NCBI GenBank assembly: GCA_041650935.1
Contig: JBAZKH010000001.1
Location: forward strand, 487,936-551,935
Origin: Candidatus Omnitrophota bacterium
GTDB taxonomy: Bacteria > Omnitrophota > Gorgyraeia > 2-01-FULL-45-10
DNA length: 64,000 nt
Reading direction: 5' to 3'
Below, in pieces: positions 5,628-49,619 of this stretch. The position numbers were made by a program, and so were the translations under genes. Each line of letters begins with the position of its first letter. Position 1 is the first letter of the stretch. A model generated the notes under the pieces. It saw nothing but the letters and a program-made list of their open reading frames with translations, ran no database searches and was not told where the DNA came from.

Positions 5628-5969
5628 GTGGTCATGAAAAGCTTTATTAAAAGGCTCATATTCTTTGCCGGATGGCTCCTCTCGCCGTTCACTTTCTGGA
5701 ACGACATATTTATCAATATACCGATCTCGTATCTATGCGCGAGCCTTTTTGTCCGGGTCTTTAAGGCAGACTTTCTCTTTATGACGCTTGTATTTTACTG
5801 GCTGAGCAATCTTCTCGGCGTGTTGATGATGTACACGGCCGGAAAGGATGTCCTGAAGGCAAAGAAGGTTGCCCGGGAACTTATTATCTTTTTAGCGGCC
5901 GTAGTTCTCTACAGCCTTATATTGATCATTCTGGGCAGGATCGGTATCCTCAAACCCGTTTTGAAATAG
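5628..5969 (+). CDS. hypothetical small polytopic membrane protein
   Basis: 113 aa with 3-4 hydrophobic helices. Confidence 0.35.
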   Translation: MVMKSFIKRLIFFAGWLLSPFTFWNDIFINIPISYLCASLFVRVFKADFLFMTLVFYWLSNLLGVLMMYTAGKDVLKAKKVARELIIFLAAVVLYSLILIILGRIGILKPVLK

Positions 5970-5994
5970 CCGGTATCGGTGATATAAAAAATTT

Positions 5995-7911
5995 ATGAGC
6001 TCAAACGCCGTTAAAAAGATATTAAGGATTGCCGTCCTGTGCATAATAGCAGTGTCGGCGCTTGCCGTATCGTATTTTCGTCTGCTCGATGATTTCGAAT
6101 CCGGAATCCTCGATCTCAGATTTCTCCTGCGCCCGGCCAAAGCCGCCCCGGCAGACAAAGTCGCGGTCATAGAGATAGGGGACGATAGCATAGCAAAACT
6201 CGGCCGCTTTCCGTTCGATCGGAATTACCACGCGATAGTCGCAACTGCCCTTTCGGAATTCGGCGCTAAGGCGATAGTTTTTGACGTGCTCTTCGGGAGT
6301 CCCCAGGAACACGACGCGGAGCTGGCAGAGGCCCTTAGGCAATCGGGCCGGGTATACCTTCCAACAGCTTTCGATATCGACAACGCGAATAAGTCGAATG
6401 TCATTACTGCCAAAGGTTACGCGAGCGAGTGTCTTCCCGATCTTGCCGCCAAGGCTAAGGGCACGGGTCATATAAACGTAGTGCCGGACCCCGACGGTAA
6501 ATTCAGGCGGGTCCCGTCGTATATAAAATATGATGGTAAGCTATACCCCAACCTCTCTTTCCTGGCCGCCTGCGATTATCTCGGCATTGACAGGAACGAC
6601 GTAAAGCTTTACCCCGGTAAATATATACGGTGCGCCGGCGGGCCGGTCATCCCGCTCGGCGAGAGATCCGAAATGATAATCAATTATTCCGGCAGGTGGG
6701 GTAAAGTATTCAGGCATTACTCATATGTAGATGTTATACAGTCGTATCTGGCGCCGGCAATAGGGCAGAAACCGATATTACAGCCCGATTATTTCAAAGG
6801 CAAAATCTGCATAATAGGCTTGAATACCACCGGAATGGACATCCATCCCAGTCCGTTCGAGCCGGTGTACCCCGGCGTAGGCATACACGCCGAAATACTT
6901 ACCTCGATAATAGACGGGGACTTCATAACGAGGATGTCGAGATGGTTTAACCTGATAGTCCTCATCTTATGTTGTGCCATTGTCTTATTTGTTACCTTTG
7001 CGACAAGGCCGGTCGCCGGGTTTCTGGCGCTTGCCGCATTGATATCAGTATTCACCGGGCTGTGCCTGGGCCTGTTCGATATCTACGGCATATGGCTCGA
7101 CGTAGTGTGCCCGATCCTGATAATGATATTGCTATACCTGTCGCTCACGCTCTGTAAGTATATATCCGAGTGGAAGAACAGGTTGAAGTCTGAATATGAG
7201 CTGGGTATGGCCAGGACGATACAGGAGAGCTTCCTGCCGAAGAATGTCCCGGAGGTCCGGGGGGCGGATATAAGAGCTGTAATGTTAACGGCGCGCCAGG
7301 TCGGCGGAGACCTGTATGAGTTCATTGAAATAGACAATGACAGGTTCGGCGTTATGATCGGCGACGTGTCCGGCAAAGGTGTTCCCGCGAGCCTGTTCAT
7401 GGCCATGGTAGTCGGCCAATTCAGATGTCTAAATGCCGTTAACCCCGATCCGCGCGAAACTATTTCGCGGCTGAACTCCAGGCTCGTCCGGGAATCCGCG
7501 TCGAACCTGTTCGTTACCATGCTCTACGCGATATTCGACTTTAAGAACAAGTCCGTCAGATTCGCTAACGGCGGACATCTCCCCATCCTATATATAGGTA
7601 AGGGCCAAAGCGCGGAATTTCTCGATGTGGACGAAGGGATGCCGCTCGGCCTTATGGATGGCGGATATTCGGAAAAGGCGGCGAGCTTTGGGGGTGGAGA
7701 TATCTTTATCTTTTATACGGACGGCGTTACTGAAGCGATGAATTCCCGCCGCGAGATGTATGGTAAGGAGCGGCTTGCCGCGATTGCCGGAAAGTATAAA
7801 GACCTTTCGGCGGAGGAGATCCTGGCAAATATCGAAAAGGATGTGCGGCGCTTCGAGCCGAGATCGAACCAGCACGATGATATAACCGCGATAGTAATCA
7901 AAATTGGCTAA
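5995..7911 (+). CDS. CHASE2 sensor domain-containing PP2C/SpoIIE-type serine phosphatase
   Basis: N-terminal TM, ~300-aa extracytoplasmic CHASE2-like region, TM cluster, then PP2C/SpoIIE motifs (..GGDLYEF..IGDVSGKGVPASL.., ..FYTDGVTEA..). Confidence 0.75.
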   Translation: MSSNAVKKILRIAVLCIIAVSALAVSYFRLLDDFESGILDLRFLLRPAKAAPADKVAVIEIGDDSIAKLGRFPFDRNYHAIVATALSEFGAKAIVFDVLFGSPQEHDAELAEALRQSGRVYLPTAFDIDNANKSNVITAKGYASECLPDLAAKAKGTGHINVVPDPDGKFRRVPSYIKYDGKLYPNLSFLAACDYLGIDRNDVKLYPGKYIRCAGGPVIPLGERSEMIINYSGRWGKVFRHYSYVDVIQSYLAPAIGQKPILQPDYFKGKICIIGLNTTGMDIHPSPFEPVYPGVGIHAEILTSIIDGDFITRMSRWFNLIVLILCCAIVLFVTFATRPVAGFLALAALISVFTGLCLGLFDIYGIWLDVVCPILIMILLYLSLTLCKYISEWKNRLKSEYELGMARTIQESFLPKNVPEVRGADIRAVMLTARQVGGDLYEFIEIDNDRFGVMIGDVSGKGVPASLFMAMVVGQFRCLNAVNPDPRETISRLNSRLVRESASNLFVTMLYAIFDFKNKSVRFANGGHLPILYIGKGQSAEFLDVDEGMPLGLMDGGYSEKAASFGGGDIFIFYTDGVTEAMNSRREMYGKERLAAIAGKYKDLSAEEILANIEKDVRRFEPRSNQHDDITAIVIKIG

Positions 7912-7999: not shown

Positions 8000-8014
8000 T
8001 AAGGAATATATAAA

Positions 8015-8602
8015 ATGTCAGACTTTTTAAAGCTTACCAAATCGGATTTACGGCGGCGAGTGCTTTTATATTTCTTTACTAACCCCGATGAGGATTTGTA
8101 TCTGCGGGAAATAGCGGATATTTTGAAGATAGACCCTGGCAATCTTTCCCGGGAGTTAGAACGATTGAGAAAAGAAGGAATTTTTAATTCTAGGGAAAGG
8201 GGCAATCAAAAATATTTCGCACTCAATAAGAGACATCCTTTGTACGGAGAGCTCAGATCCGTTGTTTTTAAAACAATAGGCATAGAAGGTTGGCTTAAGA
8301 AAATCATTGGTGGCATAAAAAAGATAGAGATTGCCGCGATATACGGGTCTTTTGCTTCGGGGCATGAAAATTCGAAAAGCGATATAGATATTTTAATTAT
8401 AGGGGATCCTGATCAAGACGACCTGATGGAAAAGATTGAAAAGGTAGAAAAAGATGTGGCGAGAGAAATAAATTATAATATTTATTCACTAGATGATTTT
8501 TCCGAAAGAGTTAAGAAAAAAGACTCTTTTATCCGGAATATCCTTAAAGGACCGAAAATAATTTTGAAAGGGAGGTTAAATGAAATTCAAAGACTTAATT
8601 AG
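8015..8602 (+). CDS. wHTH-fused minimal nucleotidyltransferase (MNT) antitoxin-like protein
   Basis: N-terminal ArsR-like wHTH. Nucleotidyltransferase GS-x10-DxD motif (..YGSFASGHENSKSDIDILI..). Overlaps the downstream HEPN ORF by 23 nt. Confidence 0.7.
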   Translation: MSDFLKLTKSDLRRRVLLYFFTNPDEDLYLREIADILKIDPGNLSRELERLRKEGIFNSRERGNQKYFALNKRHPLYGELRSVVFKTIGIEGWLKKIIGGIKKIEIAAIYGSFASGHENSKSDIDILIIGDPDQDDLMEKIEKVEKDVAREINYNIYSLDDFSERVKKKDSFIRNILKGPKIILKGRLNEIQRLN

Positions 8603-9029
8603 TTCGGGTCAGCTCAAAGAGGAAAGCACTTCCAAACACAAACTGGTCGAATTTCTTACATTTGCCGAAAATGAAATTTCCGCGGCAAAATTTAATCTCG
8701 ACAAATTTTAACTTACGGCTTATAAGTCAGCATATGATGCTTTAATACATGCGGGTAACGCTCTTATAAGATACTACGGGTATCGCCCGACAACGAAATA
8801 TACGCACTCTACGATAACCGAATTTGTTGATAGGATATTCGGTAAGGAGTACGGAGATTTAGTGCGTAGTTTTAAGCGGATGCGACGTAAGAGGCATCCT
8901 TTGCAATATGACGCCATTTTCTCAGAATCCAAAGAAGATGTAAAGGCCGCTATTCTGAAATCAGAGAAATTAGTTAAAGAGATAGAGGGGCATATAAAAA
9001 TATCGCCTGATATGAAGCGTTTATTCTAG
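8580..9029 (+). pseudogene. HEPN-domain toxin-like gene interrupted by an in-frame TAA at 8709-8711
   Basis: Same reading frame before and after the TAA. The downstream part has HEPN-like helices and an R-x4-6-H motif (..RMRRKRHPLQYD..). Confidence 0.5.
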
Positions 9030-9102
9030 AGCTATAATAATCTAGAGAGAAGACGTGGCTAAGAAAAAAAGATATTTTTTCTCTGTAATCGAAGAAGGAA
9101 TA

Positions 9103-9318
9103 ATGAATCCCAAGTATAAAGATTATAGAGGCGGAAGAATAGAGGTTTATGACAGAAAGGATAAAACCGGTTATGCCATTTATGAAGCAAGATTTTTTAT
9201 CCCATCTGAATTTATAAATTCTTTCCGGGAAACGTGGGATTTTAAAGAATCCGACGGAATGCCTTTTATCCACTGGGATTACTCCGAGGTAAAAGATAGA
9301 AAGCGGAGAGCTAAATGA
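9103..9318 (+). CDS. hypothetical small protein (alternative GTG start at 9055)
   Basis: ORF with GAAGGA SD before the ATG at 9103. No recognisable domain. Confidence 0.3.
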   Translation: MNPKYKDYRGGRIEVYDRKDKTGYAIYEARFFIPSEFINSFRETWDFKESDGMPFIHWDYSEVKDRKRRAK

Positions 9319-9412
9319 TGCTGCTAGGTACCGTTTAGTATGTAAGCATGGCTACCAACGCAATTTTCAAGTCGTAATAGATTAGCATAGAGAAGTTCCC
9401 ACGACGATATTG

Positions 9413-9452
9413 TAGCCGACATTTAAATGTCGGCTACGACGGAGAGCTTTTT
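9413..9452 (+). terminator. hairpin GTAGCCGACATTTAAATGTCGGCTAC followed by a T-tract. Terminator-like
   Basis: Perfect 10-bp stem with a TTTAAA loop, then ..GAGCTTTTTTGG. Confidence 0.5.
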
Positions 9453-9553
9453 TGGCTAAACTCTTACTTCAAGTCGTTAAGATTAAATAGGAAAAAGTCA
9501 GCTATTTAGCTTGACTCTTATCCCTGGTATGGTTTACAGTAGTTAACATATAT

Positions 9554-10180
9554 ATGAAGAAGCGACTCATTCCGATATGCCTTGTCTTAATTATCGCTTT
9601 GTGCTGTATATCGATATACGCCTTACATAAATTCTACATCTCCGCAATATCGAAACATTCCAGGGCTATTTCCTCGAAGGCCGCGGCGCTTGAAGAGTTC
9701 GATCTAAGCGAATATTCCGCAGGGGGCGCCTATAAAAAGCTCACGATCCAGGGCAAAAAACTGGGTATTGCGGCTAAAAAACTGGGCATCTTTCGTTTGG
9801 CGCCCGCGAAGGTAACGGAAATACAGGATGTGTCGATCACGTTCTACGAGAAGGGCGCCGTCATTTCCCAGATTACGGCAAAGAAAGCTTTCCTGAATGC
9901 TTCCGTTGAGGATGAGAACCCGATGGCGTCTATTGTGAAAGAGATGGACTTCTCCGGGAAGGTGGATGTGGTTACCGGAGACAGGAGGACGCTTGTCTGC
10001 AGCAGGTTAAAATGGGATAATGGACTGAACCGCATCTTCGCGAGCGGTAATTGTGTTTTGAGATTTGACAATAATGTGATCAGGGCGGATCAAATAGATT
10101 CGGATCTTAAATTACGGGATTTTAATTCTAAAAATGACAGGCTGAAGAGACTGCGGGCATTAAGCCGCGCGGTCATGTAA
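9554..10180 (+). CDS. LptC-like (OstA/LptC-fold) membrane-anchored periplasmic protein
   Basis: N-terminal TM. C-terminal beta-jellyroll-like segment resembling LptC (..DFSGKVDVVTGDRRTLVCSRLKWDNGLNRIFASGNCVL..). Confidence 0.4.
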   Translation: MKKRLIPICLVLIIALCCISIYALHKFYISAISKHSRAISSKAAALEEFDLSEYSAGGAYKKLTIQGKKLGIAAKKLGIFRLAPAKVTEIQDVSITFYEKGAVISQITAKKAFLNASVEDENPMASIVKEMDFSGKVDVVTGDRRTLVCSRLKWDNGLNRIFASGNCVLRFDNNVIRADQIDSDLKLRDFNSKNDRLKRLRALSRAVM

Positions 10181-10200: not shown

Positions 10201-13200
10201 ATGTTCAGGTCATCGTATTTTGTTAAGGCTGCGGCAATTGTTCTGCTTATATTGGGATCCCTGTCTTTCCCGGATTCGGTTTTTGCGGGTATTGCCGAAG
10301 GTAAGAATCTTCTTGCGGATGATATGGACATCGTCGGCGCGCACGCACAATTCCACGCGGCGCTTGAGGCTAACCCCGGCGGGCAATGCGAAAATTTCTG
10401 GCACGCGGTTACGGCGATCTTCTCAAACGGCGCGCTAAAGACAAAACTGCGAGACCTCAAGATATTCGATGGCAGCGACAGATTGGCGATATTTGACAGC
10501 GAAGGAGATTTGAATTACGTTGCCGACGCGGATGTCGACAATATTATAATCGACGATACCGGCCTTACCTATACCAGCCCTGCCAACTGGATAACGGTGC
10601 CAAGGACGGAAACGAACCATCCGTATAATGATAGCTTTATAGTAAATAGCGTTGGTTCCGGGACCGCTACATGGACTCCGAATGTTTTGACGCCGGGATA
10701 TTATAAGGTCCTGGCATGGATACCTTCAGACTCCGCGAATACCGGGGATGCGAAATATTCGGTGGGAGGTAATCCTGTCGTTTCAGTAAATCAAAAAGGA
10801 GGCGGGGGTGGATGGTGGGTCTCGCTGGGAGAATATGATCTTGCGGCCGGGTCCGTCAATATAACGCTGTCGGCTGATGGCTGCGCGGGACGCGTGATAG
10901 CCGATGCCGTAAAACTGGAATATATGGGCGCCATCAGGAACGACACAGAAGCCGGTTTTAGCGGTGCATGGATAGCGGAGACGGACAGTAATAAGGCGTT
11001 TAGACGTGATTATAAATGGCATGCGGCGGGTTCGGGCTCAACCGCTACATGGACATTTAATGGTGTCGATACGGCAAAGAAGTACCTGGTCTATGCAAGG
11101 TGGCCCCGCATAAGTGAAGGCGCGGCCCCTAAAGTCCAGTATGTCATGAGCACTGACGGCAGTCCGACTACCGTAACGGCAAGCCAGAGCGAAAATGCCA
11201 ATGGATGGTGCTGTCTCGGCATGTTCCAGTTTTCAGGCGCTATAGCCACAGTAACCCTTAACTCCAGCGCCGACGGAATAGTAGCCGCGGATGCCGTAAA
11301 GATCGCGCCCGCCAGGCCGTACCCGGATTTAACCCAGGCCCAGGACATGCTCAATAACAGCGCGACCGGCATAATGACCCAGATAGACGAAGCGCTCGCT
11401 AACCTTTCCAAGATAAATGATACAACAAAAGATTTTTCCGACTCCATAGTTTTGGGGGGACAAACGATTACGCTCGATTACGGTGACGCTATGGCTATTG
11501 AAGCGGCCCTCTATTTTTTAAAGGCCATGGCAAAGATAAATGCCGCATATGATATGAACAATATGAATATGCAGTCTCTGGTATTTAATCAAGGCTGTGT
11601 GCTTGACACGCCCCTATCTTTCCTTAATAGTTATATACAGCTCTTCACGCTCCGCGCCGGCGCGGGCGGTTTTCTTTCCGATGCGAAGACCGCGCTCTTG
11701 AACGCGATCGATTCTTACATGCTCGCATCCCCCTTTATACTGAACAGGGGTGAGGATGGCTTAAACCATATGGTTAGTTTTTACGAATCGTATCCCGACA
11801 GGGATGATTACCTTACAGAGGAAGCGTGGAACGGGGCCGTGGCGAAATGGCAGGAAGATAAAGATACGGCATTGGAATGCGAGCAGTATGTGCGTGAAAA
11901 GATGACAGACGTAAAGAATAACCTTACCGCCGCCAACCATCCTTATATCACGATCCCTGCCGAGATACCGGGCGCGGAGGGTGGCCCCGGCATAGAGATC
12001 AAGGTCGACCTGTATGAATTCTTCACGAATCCCAAGAATGTCCGGGACAATATAAATGAGCTTTTGGATAACGGCGTTGCGCCTAACATAGTCTTGGATG
12101 ACCTGCCCGACCCTACAGTGGGTGAGGTATTACCGACACTTGGACCGCGTGACTGGAACTTCCTCTTTGGTTACGGGCCGGTCTTTAAAGACGATCCTCA
12201 GGTTATCTGGGATGCGGACGCGCCTTCGGTTAAGCTTGAATGGGACGCTTCCAGCGACGAACACAAAGACCATATAGTGAAATACGAAATATACCGGTCG
12301 ACTTCAGCCAACATGGCGGGCGCATCTCCGGTAACTACGATCACGGACCCGTTGCTCACAAGCTATGTCGATACTTCTATTAGCGATTCCGAAGATAAAT
12401 ATTACTACCGTGTCCATACTTTTTACAATTTCGGCGGCAGCCACACGGCCGAGACCTATACCGAGGCAGGCAAGGCTATCCTCAGGATATATGTCGATGC
12501 GAATAGCGCGGTTACCGAAGAGGAAGGCACAAGGACCAAGCCTTATAAAGACCTGGGCTATGCGACTTCGGAAGGCGCCGGGAACGGCACAAAGGTCCGC
12601 GTTGCGGCAGGGACGTATCAGGAGAATGCCAGCTCGCTTAAGTTGTGGCGCGCGTCCAGCATTGTCCTCGAGGGCGGATATGAGGGGGTCAATTGGACGA
12701 GAGATATTGCCTCGAACGAGACGATCATCGATTCCCATGGATTGAATCCATCTAATAATCCTCTCGAGCTTTGGAATAAGGGTAATGTAACGATCGATGG
12801 CTTAACGGTAATTGGGCAGGTTACGGCTAATTCCTGGAGCTCGTCTATTTATGTTGGAAATTCTTCTTCTGTTATTATCAGGAATTGCAAAATACGCGGC
12901 GCAAATACCGGCATACAGGTGTATTGTTCGACCGGAGTGCTTATCGAAAACTGCTTTATAGAAGGAAGCGGGTCGATCACGAACGGCGGCCCGGGTATAG
13001 ACGTTTTTGGCTGGGATCAGGTCTCTTCTGTAATCGTCAAGGGATGCCATGTCACTAATTGGTCAAATGGAGGCATCGCGTTTAATTCCGGTAACAATTG
13101 GCAGGGTGCTCTCACGGTTTTTAATAGTGTTATTGACAAAAATAACAAAACAGGTATCAACTGCTGGGGTAATAGTAGTACGGGTGATGTCAGTATACAG

Positions 13201-14313
13201 AACAACACTATTGTAGGGAATAGAGAAACCGGAGGCATATGTTTCAACTCTCTCAGGAGTATAGTTATTAAAAACAACGTAATTGCCCACAATAACGGTG
13301 GTATAAATTTGACAAGTATTGGTATTTATGGGTGTAACACAACCGGCACATTACAGGTTGTTGCCAATAATGATTCTTATGGTCACTTTAATGGAGATTT
13401 CATTGGCTGTGCAGCTTCTGGGTATAACGGCAACATAAATGCCGACCCGCTCTTTATCGACGAGGCGAATGGGAATTACCGCCTCGGACAGATAGCTTCC
13501 GGACAGGCAGGTAATTCGCCGTGTGTCGACACGGGCAGTGATACGTCTGCAAGCCTCGGCCTGTCAGGCATGACCACGCGCAGCGACGGTGTGGTCGATA
13601 GCGGTATTGTGGATATGGGCTATCATTACGCTTCGACCATGGCGCCAATATATAAGGAAGAGTTCATAGTTGACTTCGGTGATGTATACGGCATCTGGGT
13701 ACGGTACAACGACTCAACCTGGACCAAGCTCCATGACTTAAGTCCGAAATCAATGGTAACCGGCGACATCGACGGTAACGGTAAAGACGATATCATTATC
13801 GACTTCGGAACCGAATACGGCATCTGGATAAAGTACAATGATTCTGGCTGGCAGCAGCTTCACAGCTTGAGCTCGGAGTCAATGGTAACCGGCGACATCG
13901 ACGGTAACGGTAAAGACGATATCATTATCGACTTCGGAACCGAATACGGCATCTGGGTACGGTACAACGACTCAACCTGGACCAAGCTCCATGACTTAAG
14001 TCCGAAATCAATGGTAACCGGCGACATCGACGGTAACGGTAAAGACGATATCATTATCGACTTCGGAACCGAATACGGCATCTGGATAAAGTACAATGAT
14101 TCTGGCTGGCAGCAGCTTCACAGCTTGAGCTCGGAGTCAATGGTAACCGGCGACATCGACGGTAACGGTAAAGACGATATCATTATCGACTTCGGAACCG
14201 AATACGGCATCTGGGTACGGTACAACGACTCAACCTGGACCAAGCTCCATGACTTAAGTCCGAAATCAATGGTAACCGGCGAGCTGGATAACGATAGCGG
14301 CGGAATTGTATAA
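10201..14313 (+). CDS. giant secreted multidomain protein. Order: signal peptide, two golvesin-C-like carbohydrate-binding-type domains, helical region, FN3-like domain, right-handed parallel beta-helix, then six FG-GAP/VCBS-like repeats
   Basis: Signal peptide. Two ..GxYxV..W.P.....A.Y.V........Q..GGG.WV.LG...L..G....L.....G.V.ADAVK.. domains. FN3-like ..VKLEWDASSD..YEIYRS... PbH1-type NxxIxG repeats (..NCKIRGANTGIQV..NCFIEGSG..). C-terminal DxDGNGKDDIIIDFG..YGIW..YN repeats. Confidence 0.7.
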   Translation: MFRSSYFVKAAAIVLLILGSLSFPDSVFAGIAEGKNLLADDMDIVGAHAQFHAALEANPGGQCENFWHAVTAIFSNGALKTKLRDLKIFDGSDRLAIFDSEGDLNYVADADVDNIIIDDTGLTYTSPANWITVPRTETNHPYNDSFIVNSVGSGTATWTPNVLTPGYYKVLAWIPSDSANTGDAKYSVGGNPVVSVNQKGGGGGWWVSLGEYDLAAGSVNITLSADGCAGRVIADAVKLEYMGAIRNDTEAGFSGAWIAETDSNKAFRRDYKWHAAGSGSTATWTFNGVDTAKKYLVYARWPRISEGAAPKVQYVMSTDGSPTTVTASQSENANGWCCLGMFQFSGAIATVTLNSSADGIVAADAVKIAPARPYPDLTQAQDMLNNSATGIMTQIDEALANLSKINDTTKDFSDSIVLGGQTITLDYGDAMAIEAALYFLKAMAKINAAYDMNNMNMQSLVFNQGCVLDTPLSFLNSYIQLFTLRAGAGGFLSDAKTALLNAIDSYMLASPFILNRGEDGLNHMVSFYESYPDRDDYLTEEAWNGAVAKWQEDKDTALECEQYVREKMTDVKNNLTAANHPYITIPAEIPGAEGGPGIEIKVDLYEFFTNPKNVRDNINELLDNGVAPNIVLDDLPDPTVGEVLPTLGPRDWNFLFGYGPVFKDDPQVIWDADAPSVKLEWDASSDEHKDHIVKYEIYRSTSANMAGASPVTTITDPLLTSYVDTSISDSEDKYYYRVHTFYNFGGSHTAETYTEAGKAILRIYVDANSAVTEEEGTRTKPYKDLGYATSEGAGNGTKVRVAAGTYQENASSLKLWRASSIVLEGGYEGVNWTRDIASNETIIDSHGLNPSNNPLELWNKGNVTIDGLTVIGQVTANSWSSSIYVGNSSSVIIRNCKIRGANTGIQVYCSTGVLIENCFIEGSGSITNGGPGIDVFGWDQVSSVIVKGCHVTNWSNGGIAFNSGNNWQGALTVFNSVIDKNNKTGINCWGNSSTGDVSIQNNTIVGNRETGGICFNSLRSIVIKNNVIAHNNGGINLTSIGIYGCNTTGTLQVVANNDSYGHFNGDFIGCAASGYNGNINADPLFIDEANGNYRLGQIASGQAGNSPCVDTGSDTSASLGLSGMTTRSDGVVDSGIVDMGYHYASTMAPIYKEEFIVDFGDVYGIWVRYNDSTWTKLHDLSPKSMVTGDIDGNGKDDIIIDFGTEYGIWIKYNDSGWQQLHSLSSESMVTGDIDGNGKDDIIIDFGTEYGIWVRYNDSTWTKLHDLSPKSMVTGDIDGNGKDDIIIDFGTEYGIWIKYNDSGWQQLHSLSSESMVTGDIDGNGKDDIIIDFGTEYGIWVRYNDSTWTKLHDLSPKSMVTGELDNDSGGIV
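13691..14280 (+). repeat. perfect tandem repeat, 258-bp period (two 43-aa propeller blades per unit), ~2.3 copies, inside CDS 10201..14313
   Basis: Copies beginning at 13691, 13949 and 14207 read identically base for base. Confidence 0.85.
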
Positions 14314-14333
14314 ACGCAATTTAATGCAGTGGG

Positions 14334-14359
14334 GCAGGTTTAAACCTGCCCCACTTCTG
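14334..14359 (+). repeat. palindromic element GTGGGGCAGG-TTTAAA-CCTGCCCCAC. Member of the dispersed TTTAAA-loop hairpin family. Terminator-like
   Basis: Perfect 10-bp stem. Lies 21 nt after the stop of 10201..14313. Confidence 0.6.
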
Positions 14360-14409
14360 TCATTGCGAGGGCACGAAGTGTCCGAAGCGATCTAAAATCG
14401 GGAGGGCGC

Positions 14410-17100
14410 ATGGAAAGACGCATACAAGTAATATGCGCATTAATTTTCAGCACTCTTATATTCATGGGGTTATGCGGTATTGCATTCGCGAATGGTACTA
14501 TAAGCGGTTCGGTCACGAGAAGCTCTGACGGCCAAGTAATTTTTGGCATCCATGTTTACGCCGACCCCATTACCGGTGGTAACAGTATCGTGACACAGAC
14601 CAACGATGCCGGAGGTTTTAACCTATCGCTTCCTGCCGGTTCTTACAGGATAAGATCCGGCGGCGAGATCATTGCAGAGATATCATATGTACAGGAATAT
14701 TATGATGAGCAGACTGGTTGGGGTACGGCAAATATGGTGACCGTATCGGATGGCCAGACTCTCTACGACGTAAACTTTACGCTCGATATCGGCGGTGTGA
14801 TATCGGGAGTCGTTTACAAAGAAGATGGCGTGACACCGCTTGCAGATGAGTACATAGGCGCGCGTTCCACCGACGGTGCCAAATTTGCGGGCACCCGGAC
14901 AGGTTCGAGCGGCGCGTATATCATGGCCGCGCCGGCAGGCGAGTTTAAAGTTCGGGCAGGCGGCAATACCGAATATGCGCCGAAATGGTACGCCCAGAAA
15001 AATTCCTTCTATGATGCTGATACGGTGACAGTATTGCAAGGCGAGACCGCCGCGAATATTGATTTTACTTTAGATGTGGGCGCGACTGTTGCCGGAGTGG
15101 TGTATGATAATCTGGGCGCGCCGAAAGGGAGCGTGACCGTAATTTATAACGATTATGCGTTATCCCGCATATATCCGTATTCGAGATCCGCTGTTACCGA
15201 TCCTAATGGAACGTTTATTCTGCAGGGACTCGCGGGAGGCATCTGCAAAATATCCGCTGAGCCCATAGTAAACTCCGGGCTAGCTTTCAGCGGGAAGTAC
15301 ATTTATTTGAATCCCGGGGAGAACAAGGTAGGCATGGATTTTTCGCTTTCGCAGGGATACCGTATCTGGGGATATGTAAAGAATGCCAAAGGCGCGGGTC
15401 TTTACAATGTCAGAGTAAAAGCCGGCACTGCCGATGAGCCGACTGTTGCCGAGGCAGTGACCGACCTTAACGGCCAATACGAGATGGCGCTTGCGCCGTC
15501 CATATACAGTCTCAGAATTAGCGATGACTGCGGTAGCGTAGCTCTCCCAAAAATAAAGACAGTGTCCGGCCAAGCTAAAGTGCAGGATTTTATCGCCTAT
15601 GATAACAGTAATGCGGAAACTTTGGAAGGGGTTGTTACAAACAGCGGTAGTGGCGTGACTTCGTCGTTCATGCTTTCCGCCTACAAAGCCGGTGTTGCGG
15701 CAAACATCAGTCCGTTCAATTACGGTCTTTATGCAAACGGCTGCTTCAGTGAGAACCTGATAGCCGAGGGAGGGGAGTTCAATATTTTTGTTGCGCCTCG
15801 CTCCAGCTACGATCTTTGTTTTCTTGCGATAAATATTGCCTCGCGCGGCATGGTCTCCTGTACGGTTAGAGATATCCGTTATAAGTGCGCGTCGAATTCA
15901 GAAGGCAACGGTTTTAATTATGATTTTACCGGAGGCGAAGTGGCGGGAAAGGTTACTTATGACCACAAGCCTCTTCTCATGGCCAAAGTATTCCTTTTGG
16001 ATTCATCCGAGCTGATAGCTGGTGTTGCCGAAACGGACGAGAACGGCACTTATAATATTTATAATGTCGCTCCGGGTGATTATATCCTGGAGGCAAAGAC
16101 TCTTGACGGCGAAGTAAGCCAAATGATATCAGCCGCTGTTGTGGATGAAGAGAGCACGGCAGCCAACCTTAAGTTCGAATCGGCATCGCAGATAATTACC
16201 GCGGACCTCGATGGTAACGGTAAGGATGAGATCATTATAAATTTCGGCACTCAATATGGCATCTGGATATACTACAATAATTCAACATGGGCAAAGCTCC
16301 ACGACTTAAGCCCCGAGTCAGTAACAGCGGGCGACCTCGACGCAAGCGGTAAAGACGACATTATTATCGACTTCGGGCCGCAGTATGGTATATGGATATA
16401 TTATAATAACGAAACTTGGCGGCAGCTTCACACGATAAGCCCGAAATCCATGATTACGAGCGACCTTGATGGTAACGGAAAGGCGGAAATAATCGTCGAC
16501 TTTGGTTCGCAATACGGCATATGGATATATTACAATAACGAGACATGGCAAAAACTGCATGATTTGAACGCCAAGTTCATGACCGTCGGCGATACTGATG
16601 GTGACGGTGTTAAAGATGATATAATAGTCGACTTCGGCAATCCATACGGCATCTGGATATATTACAGTAATGATGAAATATGGGAGCATCTGCATTCTGT
16701 AAGTTCGGATTCCATCGTGGTCAAAGATATAAACTATGACGGTGTGGACGATATAATTGTCGACTTTGGCCGCCCTTACGGTATATGGATATATTATGAC
16801 TGTTATTTCTGGGACCATCTTCATGATCTTAGCCCCGAGACCATGGCCGTGAATAGTTTCGGCGATGTTATGATCGATTTCGGCCCTCAATACGGCATGT
16901 GGGCATATTACGCTCACGGCGACTATGCGAACAACTGGTTTCATCTGGCAGGAGCTACTCCCCAGTCCATATCGGTCGGTAATATCGACGGGGATGAAGA
17001 CGGCTGGGATGATATCATTATCGATTTCGGCAGCGGGTATGGCGTATGGGTTTATTATAACGACTCTATTTGGGTGCAATTGCATTATTTAAGTCCGTAG
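14410..17100 (+). CDS. secreted protein with multiple carboxypeptidase-regulatory-like (CarbopepD_reg/Cna-B-like) beta-sandwich repeats and ~9 divergent FG-GAP/VCBS-like propeller repeats
   Basis: Signal peptide. Repeated G.ISG.V......G......V.....G.......TD..G.F.L..L..G.Y.I modules. C-terminal D.DG.GKD.II.DFG..YGIWIYYN..W..LH..S repeats related to the preceding gene. Confidence 0.65.
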   Translation: MERRIQVICALIFSTLIFMGLCGIAFANGTISGSVTRSSDGQVIFGIHVYADPITGGNSIVTQTNDAGGFNLSLPAGSYRIRSGGEIIAEISYVQEYYDEQTGWGTANMVTVSDGQTLYDVNFTLDIGGVISGVVYKEDGVTPLADEYIGARSTDGAKFAGTRTGSSGAYIMAAPAGEFKVRAGGNTEYAPKWYAQKNSFYDADTVTVLQGETAANIDFTLDVGATVAGVVYDNLGAPKGSVTVIYNDYALSRIYPYSRSAVTDPNGTFILQGLAGGICKISAEPIVNSGLAFSGKYIYLNPGENKVGMDFSLSQGYRIWGYVKNAKGAGLYNVRVKAGTADEPTVAEAVTDLNGQYEMALAPSIYSLRISDDCGSVALPKIKTVSGQAKVQDFIAYDNSNAETLEGVVTNSGSGVTSSFMLSAYKAGVAANISPFNYGLYANGCFSENLIAEGGEFNIFVAPRSSYDLCFLAINIASRGMVSCTVRDIRYKCASNSEGNGFNYDFTGGEVAGKVTYDHKPLLMAKVFLLDSSELIAGVAETDENGTYNIYNVAPGDYILEAKTLDGEVSQMISAAVVDEESTAANLKFESASQIITADLDGNGKDEIIINFGTQYGIWIYYNNSTWAKLHDLSPESVTAGDLDASGKDDIIIDFGPQYGIWIYYNNETWRQLHTISPKSMITSDLDGNGKAEIIVDFGSQYGIWIYYNNETWQKLHDLNAKFMTVGDTDGDGVKDDIIVDFGNPYGIWIYYSNDEIWEHLHSVSSDSIVVKDINYDGVDDIIVDFGRPYGIWIYYDCYFWDHLHDLSPETMAVNSFGDVMIDFGPQYGMWAYYAHGDYANNWFHLAGATPQSISVGNIDGDEDGWDDIIIDFGSGYGVWVYYNDSIWVQLHYLSP

Positions 17101-40162: not shown

Positions 40163-40241
40163 GAGTCGCCAATAAAGCCGCCGAACCAGCCTGTTTTAAG
40201 AATCCAAAAATCAATTGTGCGCGGGCGGGGAGACTTTAAGA

Positions 40242-40379
40242 TTGAAAAGTAACCTAAAGTTTTTTCTTTTACTTGCAGTTTTAATTCTTATATCGATATC
40301 CATGATAGGCTGTGTATCGATCCCGATCCCAAGCTCGATCCCGATCCCGAATTTCCCGCTAATAGGAGCGTTCCTGTAA
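40242..40379 (+). CDS. possible small lipoprotein (45 aa, TTG start) with an IPIPSSIPIPNFP tail
   Basis: Hydrophobic leader ending ..SMIGC. Weak SD. Overlaps an antisense ORF in the track. Confidence 0.2.
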   Translation: MKSNLKFFLLLAVLILISISMIGCVSIPIPSSIPIPNFPLIGAFL

Positions 40380-40564
40380 ACTCCATATAGACCAATCCCT
40401 ATAAACTTATCCATAATTCGCCTCATGGTTAACGTCCTATAATATATCTTATGTCACCTACAGGTATGGGAGAATATAGATATATATAATTGAATGCCAA
40501 TGAGTTATGGAAAATGTGGAAAAGCCTGTTGATAACTACGATTCCGCGGGTCCGCGGGCTTCCC

Positions 40565-40586
40565 TAGCCGACATTTAAACGTCGCC
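40565..40586 (+). repeat. degenerate copy of the 9413..9438 hairpin (TAGCCGACATTTAAACGTCGCC)
   Basis: 18 of 22 positions shared with 9413..9438. The stem is imperfect. Confidence 0.35.
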
Positions 40587-40649
40587 TCAGAGTATATACC
40601 AGGTGTTTTAGGGGCTTGTAGGGCTCTTTCCGGCGGTTTTTTTGGGGTA

Positions 40650-41657
40650 CTATTTGAGCTCGGATAGATACGGCAGAAGATTGTATTTCTTTAGCTTGTT
40701 ATAGAGGGTAGTTCTATTAACGCCTAATCTGGTAGCGGCCTTCTTCTTGTTTCCCCCTACTTCTTTCAGGACGTTCAGGATATAGACTTTTTCAGGTTCC
40801 TGCATGACATCTTTGAGGGATTTTAGTATATTGGCGGGTGCTGTGCTATCATGTAGTTTGCAGCGGGTCATTTTGACCGCCTCCAGGAGCATCTCTGGAA
40901 GATCGTCTTTATCTATTACGTCATCGGTATCGAGGATTACCGCGCGTTCGATTATATTTTCCAGCTCCCGTATGTTGCCCGGCCAGTTGTAGTCTATGAG
41001 TATTTGCCGCGTCTCCTCCGTAATTCCCCTTATTTTTTTCGAATTCTCTTTCGAATAAAGGTTCACGAAATGGTCCAGGAGGTGCGCTAAATCTTCTTTA
41101 TGTTCCCTGAGAGACGGCAGTTTGATAGATATTACATTGAGCCTGTAATAAAGGTCTTCCCTGAACCTTTTTTCGGCAACAGCCTTTTCGAGGTCCTGGT
41201 TGGTAGAAGCTACTATGCGGACGTCTACCTTAATGGTCTTGTGGTCGCCGACACGCTCGAACTCTTTCTCCTGCAGGACCCTTAAAAGCTTTACCTGCAT
41301 GTCCATCGAAAATGAATCTATATCATCGAGCAGGATCGTTCCGTTATCGCCCAGTTCGAAACGGCCCTTACGATCGCCTATGGCTCCGGTAAATGATCCT
41401 TTTGTGTGGCCGAATAGTTCGCTTTCGATTATCTCTTTTGGGAGCGCGCCGCAGGATATCTCTATGAAGGGTTTGTTTTTTCTTTTTTTATCGGCGTGAT
41501 GTATGGCGCGCGCGACCATTCTCTTGCCGGTCCCGCTTTCGCCTCTTAATAGGATCGTGGCTTTCGAATCGGATATGCGCTCGATCATGGAATACATGTT
41601 CTTCATGATAGAACTGCGGCCTACCAAGCCGTGATATGTTTGGGTAGAATTTGTCAT
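40650..41657 (-). CDS. sigma54-dependent transcriptional activator. AAA+ sigma54-interaction domain plus C-terminal Fis-type HTH only, with no receiver or sensor domain
   Basis: Walker A ..GESGTGKRMVARAIH... GAFTGA-type loop ..ESELFGHTKGSFTGA... Walker B ..GTILLDDID... C-terminal HTH ..AATRLGVNRTTLYNKL.. Confidence 0.9.
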   Translation of the reverse strand: MTNSTQTYHGLVGRSSIMKNMYSMIERISDSKATILLRGESGTGKRMVARAIHHADKKRKNKPFIEISCGALPKEIIESELFGHTKGSFTGAIGDRKGRFELGDNGTILLDDIDSFSMDMQVKLLRVLQEKEFERVGDHKTIKVDVRIVASTNQDLEKAVAEKRFREDLYYRLNVISIKLPSLREHKEDLAHLLDHFVNLYSKENSKKIRGITEETRQILIDYNWPGNIRELENIIERAVILDTDDVIDKDDLPEMLLEAVKMTRCKLHDSTAPANILKSLKDVMQEPEKVYILNVLKEVGGNKKKAATRLGVNRTTLYNKLKKYNLLPYLSELK

Positions 41658-41685
41658 ATATGTATGTATTTAGTCCAGGGTTTAA

Positions 41686-41713
41686 TTATAGATTATTAAT
41701 AGGAAAAGTCAAT
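41686..41713 (-). promoter_or_regulatory. near-consensus sigma70 promoter TTGACT-N16-TATAAT reading towards 41657
   Basis: Reverse complement of 41686..41713 is TTGACTTTTCCTATTAATAATCTATAAT. Confidence 0.5.
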
Positions 41714-41760
41714 ATAAAAAACTGGCTTTTTGCAACCTTACAACTAACGAAACGAAAACG

Positions 41761-41786
41761 TATGGAGGGTCTAAACCTTCCATATT
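41761..41786. repeat. palindrome-family copy TATGGAGGGT-CTAAA-CCTTCCATA in the gap between the PocR-GAF and AAA+ ORFs
   Basis: Imperfect stem with a T-rich run on the minus strand. Terminator-like for 41799..42845. Confidence 0.5.
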
Positions 41787-41798
41787 GTTTGCGGAAAT

Positions 41799-42845
41799 CT
41801 ATTTATTGGAGTGGTGACTCAGGGGGAGTAACGCGATCCCTGTCAGTCTTACGAGCTCTTTTACGATATCGATATCTTTTTCGGTGAAATCTGTCTTATT
41901 GCGGACCACGTTGAGGTTGATAACGCCATAAACCTCGTGAGTGTTTGCTTTCGAAAAGGGTATGACCATGGAAGACCGTATATAATTCCTGTTTAATTTG
42001 CCGGAAAGTTCGGCTGAGTCCTTATCCTTGGGCAGGATGATAGGGGTGGCGGTCTTGGCGGCCACACCGGCTACCCCCTCCCCCATCTTTACACCGCTCG
42101 AGCGGTCTATTATGCTCTTATCGAGTTCGGCGGCGACTTTTATCTTCAATATCCGGGTATTTTTGTCCATTATCATTACAGAGCCGGAGTCTGCATTGAG
42201 CGCGAGCACACACGAATGGAGGAGCGATTTCAGTATCTTCTCTTCGTAATAAGAGGAGAAGAGCGGATCCACCTTCACGACCTCAGGCGCTATCTCGCCC
42301 AGACGTTTCTTGTGGTAACCGGCTTGTGCCATATGCGTGAATGTGTCGTTTATAAGAGCGATTACCGAGCGGGCTTTGCCATATGAGAATACATTTATAT
42401 CCATAATGGCATTTGCAAGTTCTTCGGGTTTGATGCCGGGATCATTAAGCTCTACGGCGCACTGGAGCGCTTTTCCCCTGGATTTAAGCATGACGGGCCC
42501 GGCTATTATGTAGGCTACTATCCTGTGGCTGACGGCCCTGATGGGAATAGCGAATGAGCTGAGCCCAAGAGAACATTTTAGAGCCTGTTCTATGTCTATC
42601 GATTGATTGAGGTTGGCTATACCGGATGCCGTTGTTATGCAGTTGCGGCAGGCGGTTTTAGACTTCTGCGTTCTGGGCAGTATCTCCGCACAGAGCCGCG
42701 TAGAGCGGCTGGGCGCAGTCAATAGCTCGCCATGAGCGCTTATGGTCTTGAGAGTGATTTCGAGGACATTTGCGAATGAATCCTGGATACCCTGCCACTC
42801 TCCGAGATTTACTATCTCCCCGAGTTGAAATTCTTTTTTAAACAT
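41799..42845 (-). CDS. PocR sensory domain plus GAF domain protein (sensor half of a split sigma54 activator)
   Basis: PocR-like Cys pattern (..RLCAEIL......CRNC.. / ..LKCSLGLSSFAIPI..). GAF-like ..MIMDKNTRILKIKVAAEL... Same reading frame as 40650..41657. Confidence 0.65.
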   Translation of the reverse strand: MFKKEFQLGEIVNLGEWQGIQDSFANVLEITLKTISAHGELLTAPSRSTRLCAEILPRTQKSKTACRNCITTASGIANLNQSIDIEQALKCSLGLSSFAIPIRAVSHRIVAYIIAGPVMLKSRGKALQCAVELNDPGIKPEELANAIMDINVFSYGKARSVIALINDTFTHMAQAGYHKKRLGEIAPEVVKVDPLFSSYYEEKILKSLLHSCVLALNADSGSVMIMDKNTRILKIKVAAELDKSIIDRSSGVKMGEGVAGVAAKTATPIILPKDKDSAELSGKLNRNYIRSSMVIPFSKANTHEVYGVINLNVVRNKTDFTEKDIDIVKELVRLTGIALLPLSHHSNK

Positions 42846-42862
42846 ATATTATATATGTAGTA

Positions 42863-43732
42863 TTATTTCTTTCCCGATAACTTATCTATGTGCCGCTGTA
42901 AAAGTTTTTTCAGTTTCGGGTCACGAACTTTTTCCATCACATTTTTATATATAGCTATAACTCTTTCAGGGCTCTTCAACTTTTCGATGAAAATCGGTTC
43001 AAGATACGGCAGGAGCCTTCTAAACGTCATAGAGCCGGGGTATCTGTTTAATGTATGCTCGATCGCGCGGCCGGCCGCCTCATAATGTTTCGAATTCATA
43101 TTAGTTTGGATGAGCAGCAGCGCCGCGGCGTAGCCTAACCGCTTACCCGAATGCTCCTTTTCCATCTTTTCATAAAATGCCGCCGCATCCGCGTAAGCTT
43201 TATCTACCGCGGCAGTCTCCCCTTTCGTCTCATAGTGCTTTACGATATATAGAGGGGCCTCCATGCCGAGCTGGGTATAGGGGTACCGGTCTCTCAGCGC
43301 TATAAATTCCGCGAAAGCCTTATCCCATTTCCCCATCCTCTCATAGGTAAGGGCTTTTAAAAACTGGGCCGTGCTCATGACGGCCGCGTTCTCCTTGTAT
43401 TCCGTCATTATGGACTTTATGAGGGACTGCGCCTCGCCGTATTTTTTGTTGGAGATATAGAATTCCGCCAGTGTGATAGCGGCCGTCTTCGTTACGGCCG
43501 CATCCGGATATTTCTTTATAAGCGTCAGCAGGTCCTTTTCGACAGCGGCAAGCAGGCGCGGAGGCGTTACATCAGGGTTCCTCGCTATGACGGAGTTTAA
43601 TTTCATGGCGCGGTAGATGAGCTTTTCCGCGGCGTAATCTTTACCGGGAGAGAATGAAGATACTAAAGAAAACGCCGCCCAGACGACGATCAGTATCAGT
43701 ACCATGTATAGGATTATCTTTTTCATCTTCAT
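42863..43732 (-). CDS. N-terminally anchored TPR-repeat protein (PrsT/YbgF-like)
   Basis: One TM. Multiple 34-aa helical repeats with the W/LG/Y/A/F/A/P pattern. Confidence 0.55.
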   Translation of the reverse strand: MKMKKIILYMVLILIVVWAAFSLVSSFSPGKDYAAEKLIYRAMKLNSVIARNPDVTPPRLLAAVEKDLLTLIKKYPDAAVTKTAAITLAEFYISNKKYGEAQSLIKSIMTEYKENAAVMSTAQFLKALTYERMGKWDKAFAEFIALRDRYPYTQLGMEAPLYIVKHYETKGETAAVDKAYADAAAFYEKMEKEHSGKRLGYAAALLLIQTNMNSKHYEAAGRAIEHTLNRYPGSMTFRRLLPYLEPIFIEKLKSPERVIAIYKNVMEKVRDPKLKKLLQRHIDKLSGKK

Positions 43733-43757
43733 TTCCGGTGCCTCGGCAGGCTCGGCA

Positions 43758-44636
43758 TTAACCCTGAGCTTTTGTCGAAGGTTGATGGTCCAGGAGCCAT
43801 TTAGATACGCATATAATTACGAAACAATCCAGGAATACGGTGACTATTACGCCAAGGAGTGTTGTGCACAGGGTAATCTCCGGGAAGGTTTTGCCGGCGA
43901 GTTCCGCCGAGAAACTCTTCAATAGTATGATCGGCAGGTAAGCGGCGAGCGGTAAAAAGATCAGGTTGAAGATGACGGCAAAATTACGGAATCCCAAACG
44001 CACGCTTTTAAAAATAGCTTTTACCAGGCGCGTTTTTTCTATGACTATGACGGGCACGGTCAGTATCAGCAGTGCCTGTATGATGACGGTCGTTAATAAG
44101 ATAAAGATGGTGAGTGATATGCTATAGACCTGCTGTGGTATCTGAGGGAGTATCTTTGTCGTGATATGAAGCGCCTTTGCAAAGATGAACATATCTATCT
44201 TCTGCAGGAGCGTTGTGACAATGACCATTACCAGCGCGTATGCAGCCAGGGACGGATAGGTCTTAACGGTGTTTTTCAATATCGCGTCTCTTTTGACCGG
44301 AAGATGCGCCTTTATATTCTTGAATATATTGACAGATGTGGCTGTTAACGCTATCCCGATAAGTATATAAATCGCCGTCTGCGCGAAATAAAATAATCCG
44401 GGCAAAGTTATCAGGTTGGCCGGATAATGAAGGAACGCCTCTCCGAAGAATTTTTTGATAATGGGCCCGGCTATTATCGAAAATGGCCATCTGGCCGAGA
44501 AGAAGATGATCTCCAGCGATAACGTCTCAAGGAATGCTATGACGATGAACGGCAGTAAGACCACCGGGTTCCTGGCGATGGTGTTAAATGAATCGGCCCA
44601 ATTTTTTCGTATATTATATTTTTTCATAATTAGCAA
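43758..44636 (-). CDS. hypothetical polytopic membrane protein
   Basis: ~8 hydrophobic helices. No motif recognised. Confidence 0.4.
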   Translation of the reverse strand: MLIMKKYNIRKNWADSFNTIARNPVVLLPFIVIAFLETLSLEIIFFSARWPFSIIAGPIIKKFFGEAFLHYPANLITLPGLFYFAQTAIYILIGIALTATSVNIFKNIKAHLPVKRDAILKNTVKTYPSLAAYALVMVIVTTLLQKIDMFIFAKALHITTKILPQIPQQVYSISLTIFILLTTVIIQALLILTVPVIVIEKTRLVKAIFKSVRLGFRNFAVIFNLIFLPLAAYLPIILLKSFSAELAGKTFPEITLCTTLLGVIVTVFLDCFVIICVSKWLLDHQPSTKAQG

Positions 44637-48797: not shown

Positions 48798-49619
48798 TCA
48801 TTTGATGAGGCTGTTTCCAAAAACATCTCTGATACTTTTTAAGATAATCGGTTTTTCCAGCAATTTTAGTTCACTTTTATCCTGGAGGAATCTTTCAACG
48901 TCTTTCTTTGCGGCGCTAAAATCGACGCTCTCTACTCTTTCGGTCAAAAAATCCATGATATTGTTTTCATCGATTTTGTAATCGCGGCCCTGCGTTTGCG
49001 TGATAGCGTTGTTCAGTAATTGATAATTAGGTTTGACTTTCTTACCAAGATACCAAAGCAGATCATAAAAATCTCTTCCCTTGACGTATTTTCTGAAAAA
49101 ACACGCATGTAATTTAGCGGCGTATAAAGACGCCAGATCGAAATGGGAAATATTCAGGGCGTATAGTTTATTCACCAGGGTTTTTTCAAGATGCCAGCCG
49201 CACGGAGAATTGGAATCAGCCTTGATTTTAATCGAAAGCGTCTGGCTCGCTAAAGGCGAGAGCCCTGTTGATTTTAACAGTCCCGGAAATTTCAGCATGC
49301 TGCTTCGAACTGTCTTCTTCACAGCTGGTTTAGTTTCTATTTTTAATCCATTCAAGTCGAACTCACGCTCGAGGACCCGGACGATGTCCGTGAAATCGTA
49401 TCCCTTGGCGTCAAAAACAGAAAAATCCAAATCCTCGGAAAATCTTCTCATATCATAAAGAAACCTTAACGCCGTCCCGCCGACAAAAGCCAGATTATTA
49501 AAATAACCTTTATCCTGTATAAATTTTAATGTTAATAGTTGAAGAGTCTCCCGCAATTTATTGGTCTTGGCTAGGTTATCTCTTTCATCGGCAATCTGCT
49601 GCCGCAGTAATTCGATCAT
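48798..49619 (-). CDS. AbiEii/AbiGii-family nucleotidyltransferase toxin (type IV TA)
   Basis: ..NLAFVGGTALRFLYDMRRFSEDLDFSV.. motif. ~270 aa. Confidence 0.75.
   Translation of the reverse strand: MIELLRQQIADERDNLAKTNKLRETLQLLTLKFIQDKGYFNNLAFVGGTALRFLYDMRRFSEDLDFSVFDAKGYDFTDIVRVLEREFDLNGLKIETKPAVKKTVRSSMLKFPGLLKSTGLSPLASQTLSIKIKADSNSPCGWHLEKTLVNKLYALNISHFDLASLYAAKLHACFFRKYVKGRDFYDLLWYLGKKVKPNYQLLNNAITQTQGRDYKIDENNIMDFLTERVESVDFSAAKKDVERFLQDKSELKLLEKPIILKSIRDVFGNSLIK

Follow-up and report, generated by a model that had tools for sequence, protein, structure and literature searches.

Introduction

Highly repetitive propellers, VCBS and FG-GAP types among them, are found in all major lineages, usually near a protein terminus (Pereira & Lupas 2022, PMC9218822). 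VCBS propellers, whose defining feature is a DxDxDG-type motif, undergo internal blade amplification up to 100% identity, and their blade numbers differ in otherwise identical proteins: paralogues with 6 and 9 blades are 100% identical elsewhere, and there are chitinases with 3, 4, 6, and 9 blades (PMC9218822).

Here we describe an array of this already known kind, a recently amplified propeller (Pereira & Lupas 2022), in a 64,000-nt stretch of a Candidatus Omnitrophota contig (assembly GCA_041650935.1, JBAZKH010000001.1, positions 487,936–551,935; hereafter, the window). As in the propellers of PMC9218822, the blades are up to 100% identical, lie within a few residues of the protein terminus, and are flanked by a closing strand that is distinct from the amplified part and that homologues conserve. 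The proteins are likewise bacterial and linked to carbohydrate recognition, with a blade number that varies in otherwise identical sequences. Unlike in those propellers, the repeated unit comprises two blades, A and B, instead of one, it is found in an Omnitrophota MAG, and the number differs between assemblies of one population rather than between paralogues or strains. The two-blade unit and this within-population (or within-assembly) difference are what is particular to the window array.

Three other systems bear comparison. The Alp-family streptococcal proteins (PMC13106166) share with the array long in-frame units (~80 aa in Alp, 86 aa in the window) conserved at the nucleotide level and a copy number that varies (in the window, between assemblies only), for which short reads are insufficient and long reads are needed. 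Alp repeats, however, are autonomous beta-sandwich domains, beads on a string that fold in any number, whereas the window blades belong to one predicted toroid, and their number affects fold closure; the window protein also lacks an LPXTG anchor, and immune selection is not a feature evidenced for it. The integrin-like propeller lectins (Psathyrella velutina PVL, Agrocybe AAL2, and Photorhabdus PLL) resemble the window protein in the DxDxDG-type loop of each blade and in predicted secretion. Their sequence identity to it is only 15–19%, they have seven diverged blades, and sugar binding by the window protein is putative.

Simple-sequence contingency loci, like the array, place a repeat of potentially unstable copy number inside the gene of a likely surface or secreted protein. 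They work by slipped-strand mispairing of 1–9 nt units, whereas the window unit measures 258 nt, its changes keep the frame, and its long repeats would change in number through recombination or template switching. We set aside a classical contingency locus because the unit is too long and always in frame. An earlier sequence-only reading had proposed a contingency locus for blade number; as worded this is not supported, since with a unit that is a multiple of three the blade number alters without on/off switching.

Results

Host gene and genomic neighbourhood

The array lies in frame at the 3' end of a gene on the forward strand, followed by a hairpin and by a second blade-encoding gene:

10201–14313, + strand: host gene, 1370 aa (from the open reading frame list, translation, and Pfam)
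14320–14345, + strand: perfect hairpin with a 10-bp stem and a 6-nt loop (GTGGGGCAGG TTTAAA CCTGCCCCAC), just 3' of the host gene's stop codon and between the two genes
14410–17100, + strand: neighbouring gene, 896 aa, with a signal-like N-terminus, four CarboxypepD_reg domains, and seven diverged 43-aa blades (~16195–17097)

A cluster look-up showed the host gene product to be identical to NCBI MFA5142974.1, which comes from a Candidatus Omnitrophota MAG (710-kb contig). From the N- to the C-terminus, it comprises a hydrophobic signal-like segment, two Golvesin_C domains, a right-handed beta-helix, and 43-aa blades of the FG-GAP/VCBS type. We found no LPXTG or PEP-CTERM motif at the C-terminus of the translation. 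The host protein is predicted to be a secreted beta-helix protein with a C-terminal propeller module.

The surrounding genes encode polysaccharide flippases, glycosyltransferases, Wzy-type polymerases, an EpsH exosortase, EpsI, and PEP-CTERM proteins, and the host gene belongs to this exopolysaccharide/exosortase locus. Family knowledge and the neighbourhood together fit a matrix- or glycan-binding or -modifying role for the host protein. An AbiEii-family toxin-like gene was annotated (on contig L005) in the exosortase/EPS cluster at 48798–49619 (- strand), beside EpsH and EpsI. Upstream of the host gene, positions 8015–8602 (+ strand) encode a small protein with an ArsR/MarR-type HTH and a Pol-beta-type nucleotidyltransferase domain; the gene lies in a low-GC stretch (8001–10000, 0.40 vs. 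~0.47–0.50 nearby), and a second low-GC stretch was seen at 18–20 kb. Farther downstream, at ~40200–44000, long open reading frames change from the + to the - strand (between 40162 and 40650) and cumulative GC skew reaches its maximum (~42–44 kb), which could be a replication landmark or just convergent gene clusters.

Scanning the array and its surroundings for promoters and terminators gave nothing meaningful; four promoter-like matches within the array are one repeated sequence. The hairpin at 14320–14345 is possibly a terminator, a candidate on which the consensus terminator scan made no call because its T-run is weak.

Position, period, and identity of the array

Tandem Repeats Finder (TRF) called a single large array in the window, at 13686–14282 (+ strand). 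It spans 597 nt, within which a 258-nt unit occurs 2.31 times with 100% identity, in the order A-B-A-B-A' (TRF: period 258, 2.3 copies, 100% matches, 0 indels, score 1194). Its parts and flanks, all on the + strand, are as follows:

13657–13685: diverged leading partial blade (EEFIVDFGDV...), which enters the array and lies outside the perfect repeat
13686–13943: full copy 1 (sub-unit A, 13686–13814; sub-unit B, 13815–13943)
13944–14201: full copy 2 (sub-unit A, 13944–14072; sub-unit B, 14073–14201)
14202–14282: partial copy 3 (A'), the first 81 nt of A
14283–14313: diverged C-terminal tail (..ELDNDSGGIV) and stop codon

When the array was compared with itself at a lag of 258 nt, 339 positions in a row were identical; outside it, identity at this lag was 45% in the left 60 nt and 27% in the right 60 nt. 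Such a run cannot have arisen by chance. The identical 258-bp tandem repeats of the sequence-only reading are thereby confirmed, and the starts it gave (13691, 13949, and 14207) fit the register of the array, whose true left boundary, 13686, lies 5 nt before the first of them. Its count of three copies is right for two full ones, the third being a partial copy of 81 nt. The same 81-nt segment is also found at 13686 and 13944. The array ends 10 codons before the stop, and the C-terminal ends of homologues (GELDNDSRT, GELNGQ) resemble the tail of the array gene. The seven 43-aa blades of the neighbouring gene are related and diverged, as had been noted from the letters; TRF called no array in 14410–17100, where the blades are too diverged.

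The 100% figure is an upper bound on the true identity of the array, because an assembler that walks a graph cycle twice yields identical full copies by construction. Perfect identity therefore does not by itself prove recency.

Sub-units A and B

Each 258-nt unit (86 codons) consists of two 129-nt sub-units, A and B, that encode one 43-aa repeat each. The A copies are 100% identical to one another, and A and B share 35 of 43 aa and 108 of 129 nt. All 21 nucleotide differences between A and B fall within 51 nt (13828–13878 and 14086–14136 in the B sub-units), where seven codons differ synonymously and eight non-synonymously. The remaining 78 nt, encoding SMVTGDIDGNGKDDIIIDFGTEYGIW, are the same in A and B and occur four times:

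13750–13827, 13879–13956, 14008–14085, and 14137–14214, + strand: 78-nt segments identical between A and B (n = 4)

Among the seven blades of the neighbouring gene, the equivalent 78-nt segments are just 47–68% identical to one another, so purifying selection on the protein alone does not explain the A/B identity. The simplest reading of the A/B mosaic is a recent conversion or homogenisation event. Recent expansion or gene conversion, which had been suggested from the repeat's perfect identity, is plausible in that A copies show no differences while A and B differ in 15 codons; the identity does not prove it independently.

Predicted fold of the blades

The 43-aa repeats matched Pfam FG-GAP (44.9 bits, cut-off 22.1) and FG-GAP_3 (27.7 bits, cut-off 26.9). 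Translation and a motif count placed the loop DIDGNGKDD, of DxDxDG type, in each of the four full blades; by its motif it is predicted to be of the cation-binding type. We modelled the last 223 residues with AlphaFold from a 12-row alignment of exact homologue sub-sequences, which contained seven-blade relatives that could bias the curvature. The model (mean pLDDT 90.5, pTM 0.86) has 20 strands, that is 5 × 4, four per 43-aa unit, and the folds it matches best are those of propeller lectins and integrin alpha; the predicted blades are thus four-stranded with a propeller fold. A PDB sequence search with the repeat region returned nothing significant (best E 0.09). The earlier assignment of two 43-aa propeller blades to each 258-nt unit agrees with the Pfam scores above cut-off, the high-confidence model, and its fold matches.

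To judge from the fold matches and the gene neighbourhood, the C-terminal FG-GAP/VCBS-type module is probably carbohydrate-binding and lectin-like. Weak hints from fold superposition make seven blades a possible true state. A single blade, as in the 0.31-unit form described below, cannot make a propeller alone; that form is therefore suspect as an assembly product, unless it is an allele that has lost its function.

Copy number across assemblies

All evidence on copy number comes from short-read assemblies, and the three compared here, which may share one read set, represent one clonal population, with 0 mismatches over the ~51 kb compared. The exact product of the neighbouring gene is also encoded on an ENA MEGAHIT contig and on one Logan contig of SRR8542065. 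At the array, the assemblies disagree. The MAG form has 2.31 units (1370 aa, five blades). The ENA MEGAHIT contig (ERZ27247363, k141_1712736, L001/L006; 399.5 kb) runs unbroken through the site and is 100% identical to window positions 1–27100 apart from an exact 516-nt (2 × 258) deletion; the absent nucleotides are exactly copies 1 and 2, which leaves 0.31 units (1198 aa, one blade). Both the 1370-aa and the 1198-aa forms are open reading frames. Blade number, one or five, thus differs between sequences that are otherwise 100% identical; assembly could have caused this difference.

The Logan k=31 contigs of SRR8542065 (L007, 4.3 kb; L002, 12.8 kb; L005, 17.9 kb) are 100% identical to the window, end at 13715, and resume at 14253, that is, at both array boundaries. 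In a k=31 de Bruijn graph that we built from the window sequence, the first in-branch k-mer is 13686–13716 and the last out-branch k-mer is 14252–14282, and the predicted unitig ends, 13715 and 14253, are exactly the Logan contig ends. A genome with the collapsed form alone would have no branch at the array boundaries in this graph, so the SRR8542065 reads hold B-to-A and A-to-continuation junctions and hence at least 1.31 units. The repeat itself is real (SRR8542065 holds 1.31 units or more), and every copy number from 1.31 upwards gives the same k=31 graph.

Longer k-mers separate the forms. Of the 141-mers in the collapsed MEGAHIT contig, 59 are missing from the 2.31-unit form (0 at k <= 82), so the contig cannot come from the expanded form alone in a k=141 graph. 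The window form, in turn, contains 59 141-mers and 45 127-mers that are not in a 1.31-unit form. The junction of entry, 81 nt, and exit is diagnostic of the 0.31 form, and that of the B tail, 81 nt, and the continuation 'CATCGACGG' of at least 2.31 units. Graph logic requires separate read support for each of the long-k assemblies, which favours real heterogeneity (0.31 and at least 2.31 units); MEGAHIT's local-assembly step lies outside this argument, and an assembler artefact is a live alternative source of the 0.31 and 2.31 states. Copy number either varies within the population or is beyond what short reads can resolve. That short reads could not resolve it had been anticipated from the sequence, and the assemblies bear this out with 2.31 units, 0.31 units, or a break at both boundaries.

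Homologues and the closest orthologue

Homologues with the same type of module differ in blade number and in how far their blades have diverged (identities are to the window protein):

P0003: 44% identity, seven blades
L009: 54% identity over the matched C-terminal segment, seven blades, diverged (62% at lag 129)
P0004/L004: 40% identity, five blades, diverged (72% at lag 129)
P0006/L089: 35% identity, three blades, A-B-A', two mismatches over ~72 nt at lag 258
P0005/L003 (GCA_028699255.1): 50% identity, three blades, a perfect 114-nt run at lag 258

The five-blade count of P0004/L004 is reliable because its blades are diverged. L003 shows at 5965–6336 the same A-B-A' layout as the window, and its three-blade count may be an assembly minimum. 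All blade counts are odd: 3, 5, and 7 in the homologues, 1 and 5 in the forms of the window gene, and 7 in the neighbouring gene. Odd numbers would be expected if pairs of blades were added to one split closing blade, but the cases are few and chance may account for them.

The closest orthologue, P0024 (L090, GCA_028718265.1, JAQUMG010000006.1), whose cluster representative P0002 is 78% identical, is a single 1878-aa protein at a syntenic locus. Past the beta-helix it continues with CarboxypepD_reg domains homologous to the neighbouring gene of the window (31% identity, E 1e-36). The two adjacent genes at window 10201–17100 correspond to the one gene at L090 5438–11074, which points to a split or fusion of genes accompanied by an exchanged C-terminal module. 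At its C-terminal end, P0024 carries two Golvesin_C domains from a tandem repeat (L090 10281–11056; 402 nt × 1.9, 99% identical, 370 nt perfect) that duplicates the whole domain; the duplicated module is thus not a blade array, though it sits at the same end of the gene. Taken with the homologues that repeat at lag 258, this shows that near-perfect duplications of whole modules recur at the end of the host gene in separate lineages.

The 43-aa module is joined to many unrelated N-terminal domains in metagenomic proteins, and in a repeat-only protein search no further protein exceeded 51% identity to the array. In one protein with the module, P0028 (a JGI fragment of 221 aa), the blade-length stretch ITTGDIDGNGEDDLIAAFEGYGLFVYYNNTFWSQLHGL is perfectly doubled at the protein level; identical adjacent blades may be common in this family. 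An exact look-up of the 1370-aa product among encoding contigs gave no match, and exact 64-nt scans of genome contigs and metagenome contigs gave 0 matches. A profile scan of genome contigs matched one distant gammaproteobacterial relative only. The corresponding scan of metagenome contigs yielded 80 beta-helix relatives; 43-aa blades were present only in L009, and the other relatives read end in other modules. Literature searches on SRR8542065 and on Omnitrophota with these domains returned nothing specific.

Discussion

The array is probably a genuine, recently homogenised, in-frame amplification of two blades (86 aa), with a copy number that is polymorphic or that short reads leave unresolved, and with a change of size rather than an on/off switch as its consequence. 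Its perfect direct repeats of 81 to 339 nt, arranged head to tail, could serve as substrates for unequal homologous recombination or template switching; in E. coli, short direct or tandem repeats are both deleted and expanded by RecA-independent routes of this kind (PMC7145654). An exchange would add or remove whole 258-nt units and keep the frame, so that blade number would move by two (1, 3, 5, 7). Between the first and third 81-nt copies, it would produce exactly the 516-nt deletion of the ENA contig. The 78-nt stretch common to A and B may stem from an additional, partial gene-conversion event. The five blades of the window would then be one state, or one assembler's path. We tentatively entertain, as a minority possibility, that one- and five-blade alleles, and perhaps three- or seven-blade ones, co-exist in one clonal population, where frequent recombination would act as a heritable length switch that leaves the propeller absent, partial, or complete.

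Other explanations differ in what they make of the two assembled states. Were the array fixed at 2.31 units and five blades, it would be a recent, now stable duplication, the 0.31-unit MEGAHIT form would be mis-assembled, and no variation would be ongoing. We think this unlikely. It agrees with the five-blade homologue P0004/L004, whose diverged blades give an unambiguous count, with the confident five-blade AlphaFold model, and with the structural implausibility of a one-blade protein. The 45 127-mers and 59 141-mers of the window form also require at least 2.31 units if the MAG was assembled at k >= 83, an argument that hangs on the MAG's assembler and k. The reading has to accommodate a MEGAHIT contig of 399.5 kb that is unbroken through the site and whose 59 junction-specific 141-mers are impossible from a 2.31-unit graph. 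Those same window k-mers, on the same proviso, tell against a fixed number below 2.31, such as 1.31 (three blades), and a number above it, such as 3.31 (seven blades), is conceivable too; 2.31 and 0.31 would then be arbitrary paths through a loop, with an identity that comes from reused graph edges. The k=31 graph, indifferent to any number from 1.31 upwards, is compatible with this; so is the general finding that short-read assemblies of identical long repeats do not give repeat numbers (PMC13106166), and seven blades are found in the neighbouring gene, P0003, and L009. Seven is not obligatory, however, given three- and five-blade homologues with non-identical blades, and the seven-blade relatives in the AlphaFold alignment could bias the curvature. 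A fixed number other than that of the window thus seems distinctly improbable.

A foreign loop would be a different matter: extra blades drawn from a paralogue or a co-occurring strain that shares the 81-nt segment, in a chimeric MAG contig. The 43-aa module is widespread and sits on many different proteins, and the k=31 branch points would look identical. Yet the insert keeps both frame and register exactly and is built of the same A and B types, the boundary 30-mer occurs within the array only across the 64-kb window, the repeat-only search found nothing above 51% identity to the array, and homologues have a matching architecture at the equivalent position; we give this explanation hardly any credence. 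A chimera with a paralogue was set aside, as the boundary 30-mer has no second copy in the window outside the array.

Neither the deposited length of the host protein, 1370 aa, nor that of its ENA twin, 1198 aa, is trustworthy as the true length, and wherever blades are identical, numbers counted from short-read MAGs cannot be relied on. The view that propellers are continually amplified from blades gains an Omnitrophota case in this locus, with a two-blade unit and a hint of expansion and contraction within a living population. If the polymorphism is real, it would offer a tractable natural case of how many blades are needed to fold and bind. If the length-switch reading is true, variation in blade number would diversify, at the level of the population, a module for attachment or matrix binding in a lineage that is uncultivated and possibly host-dependent.
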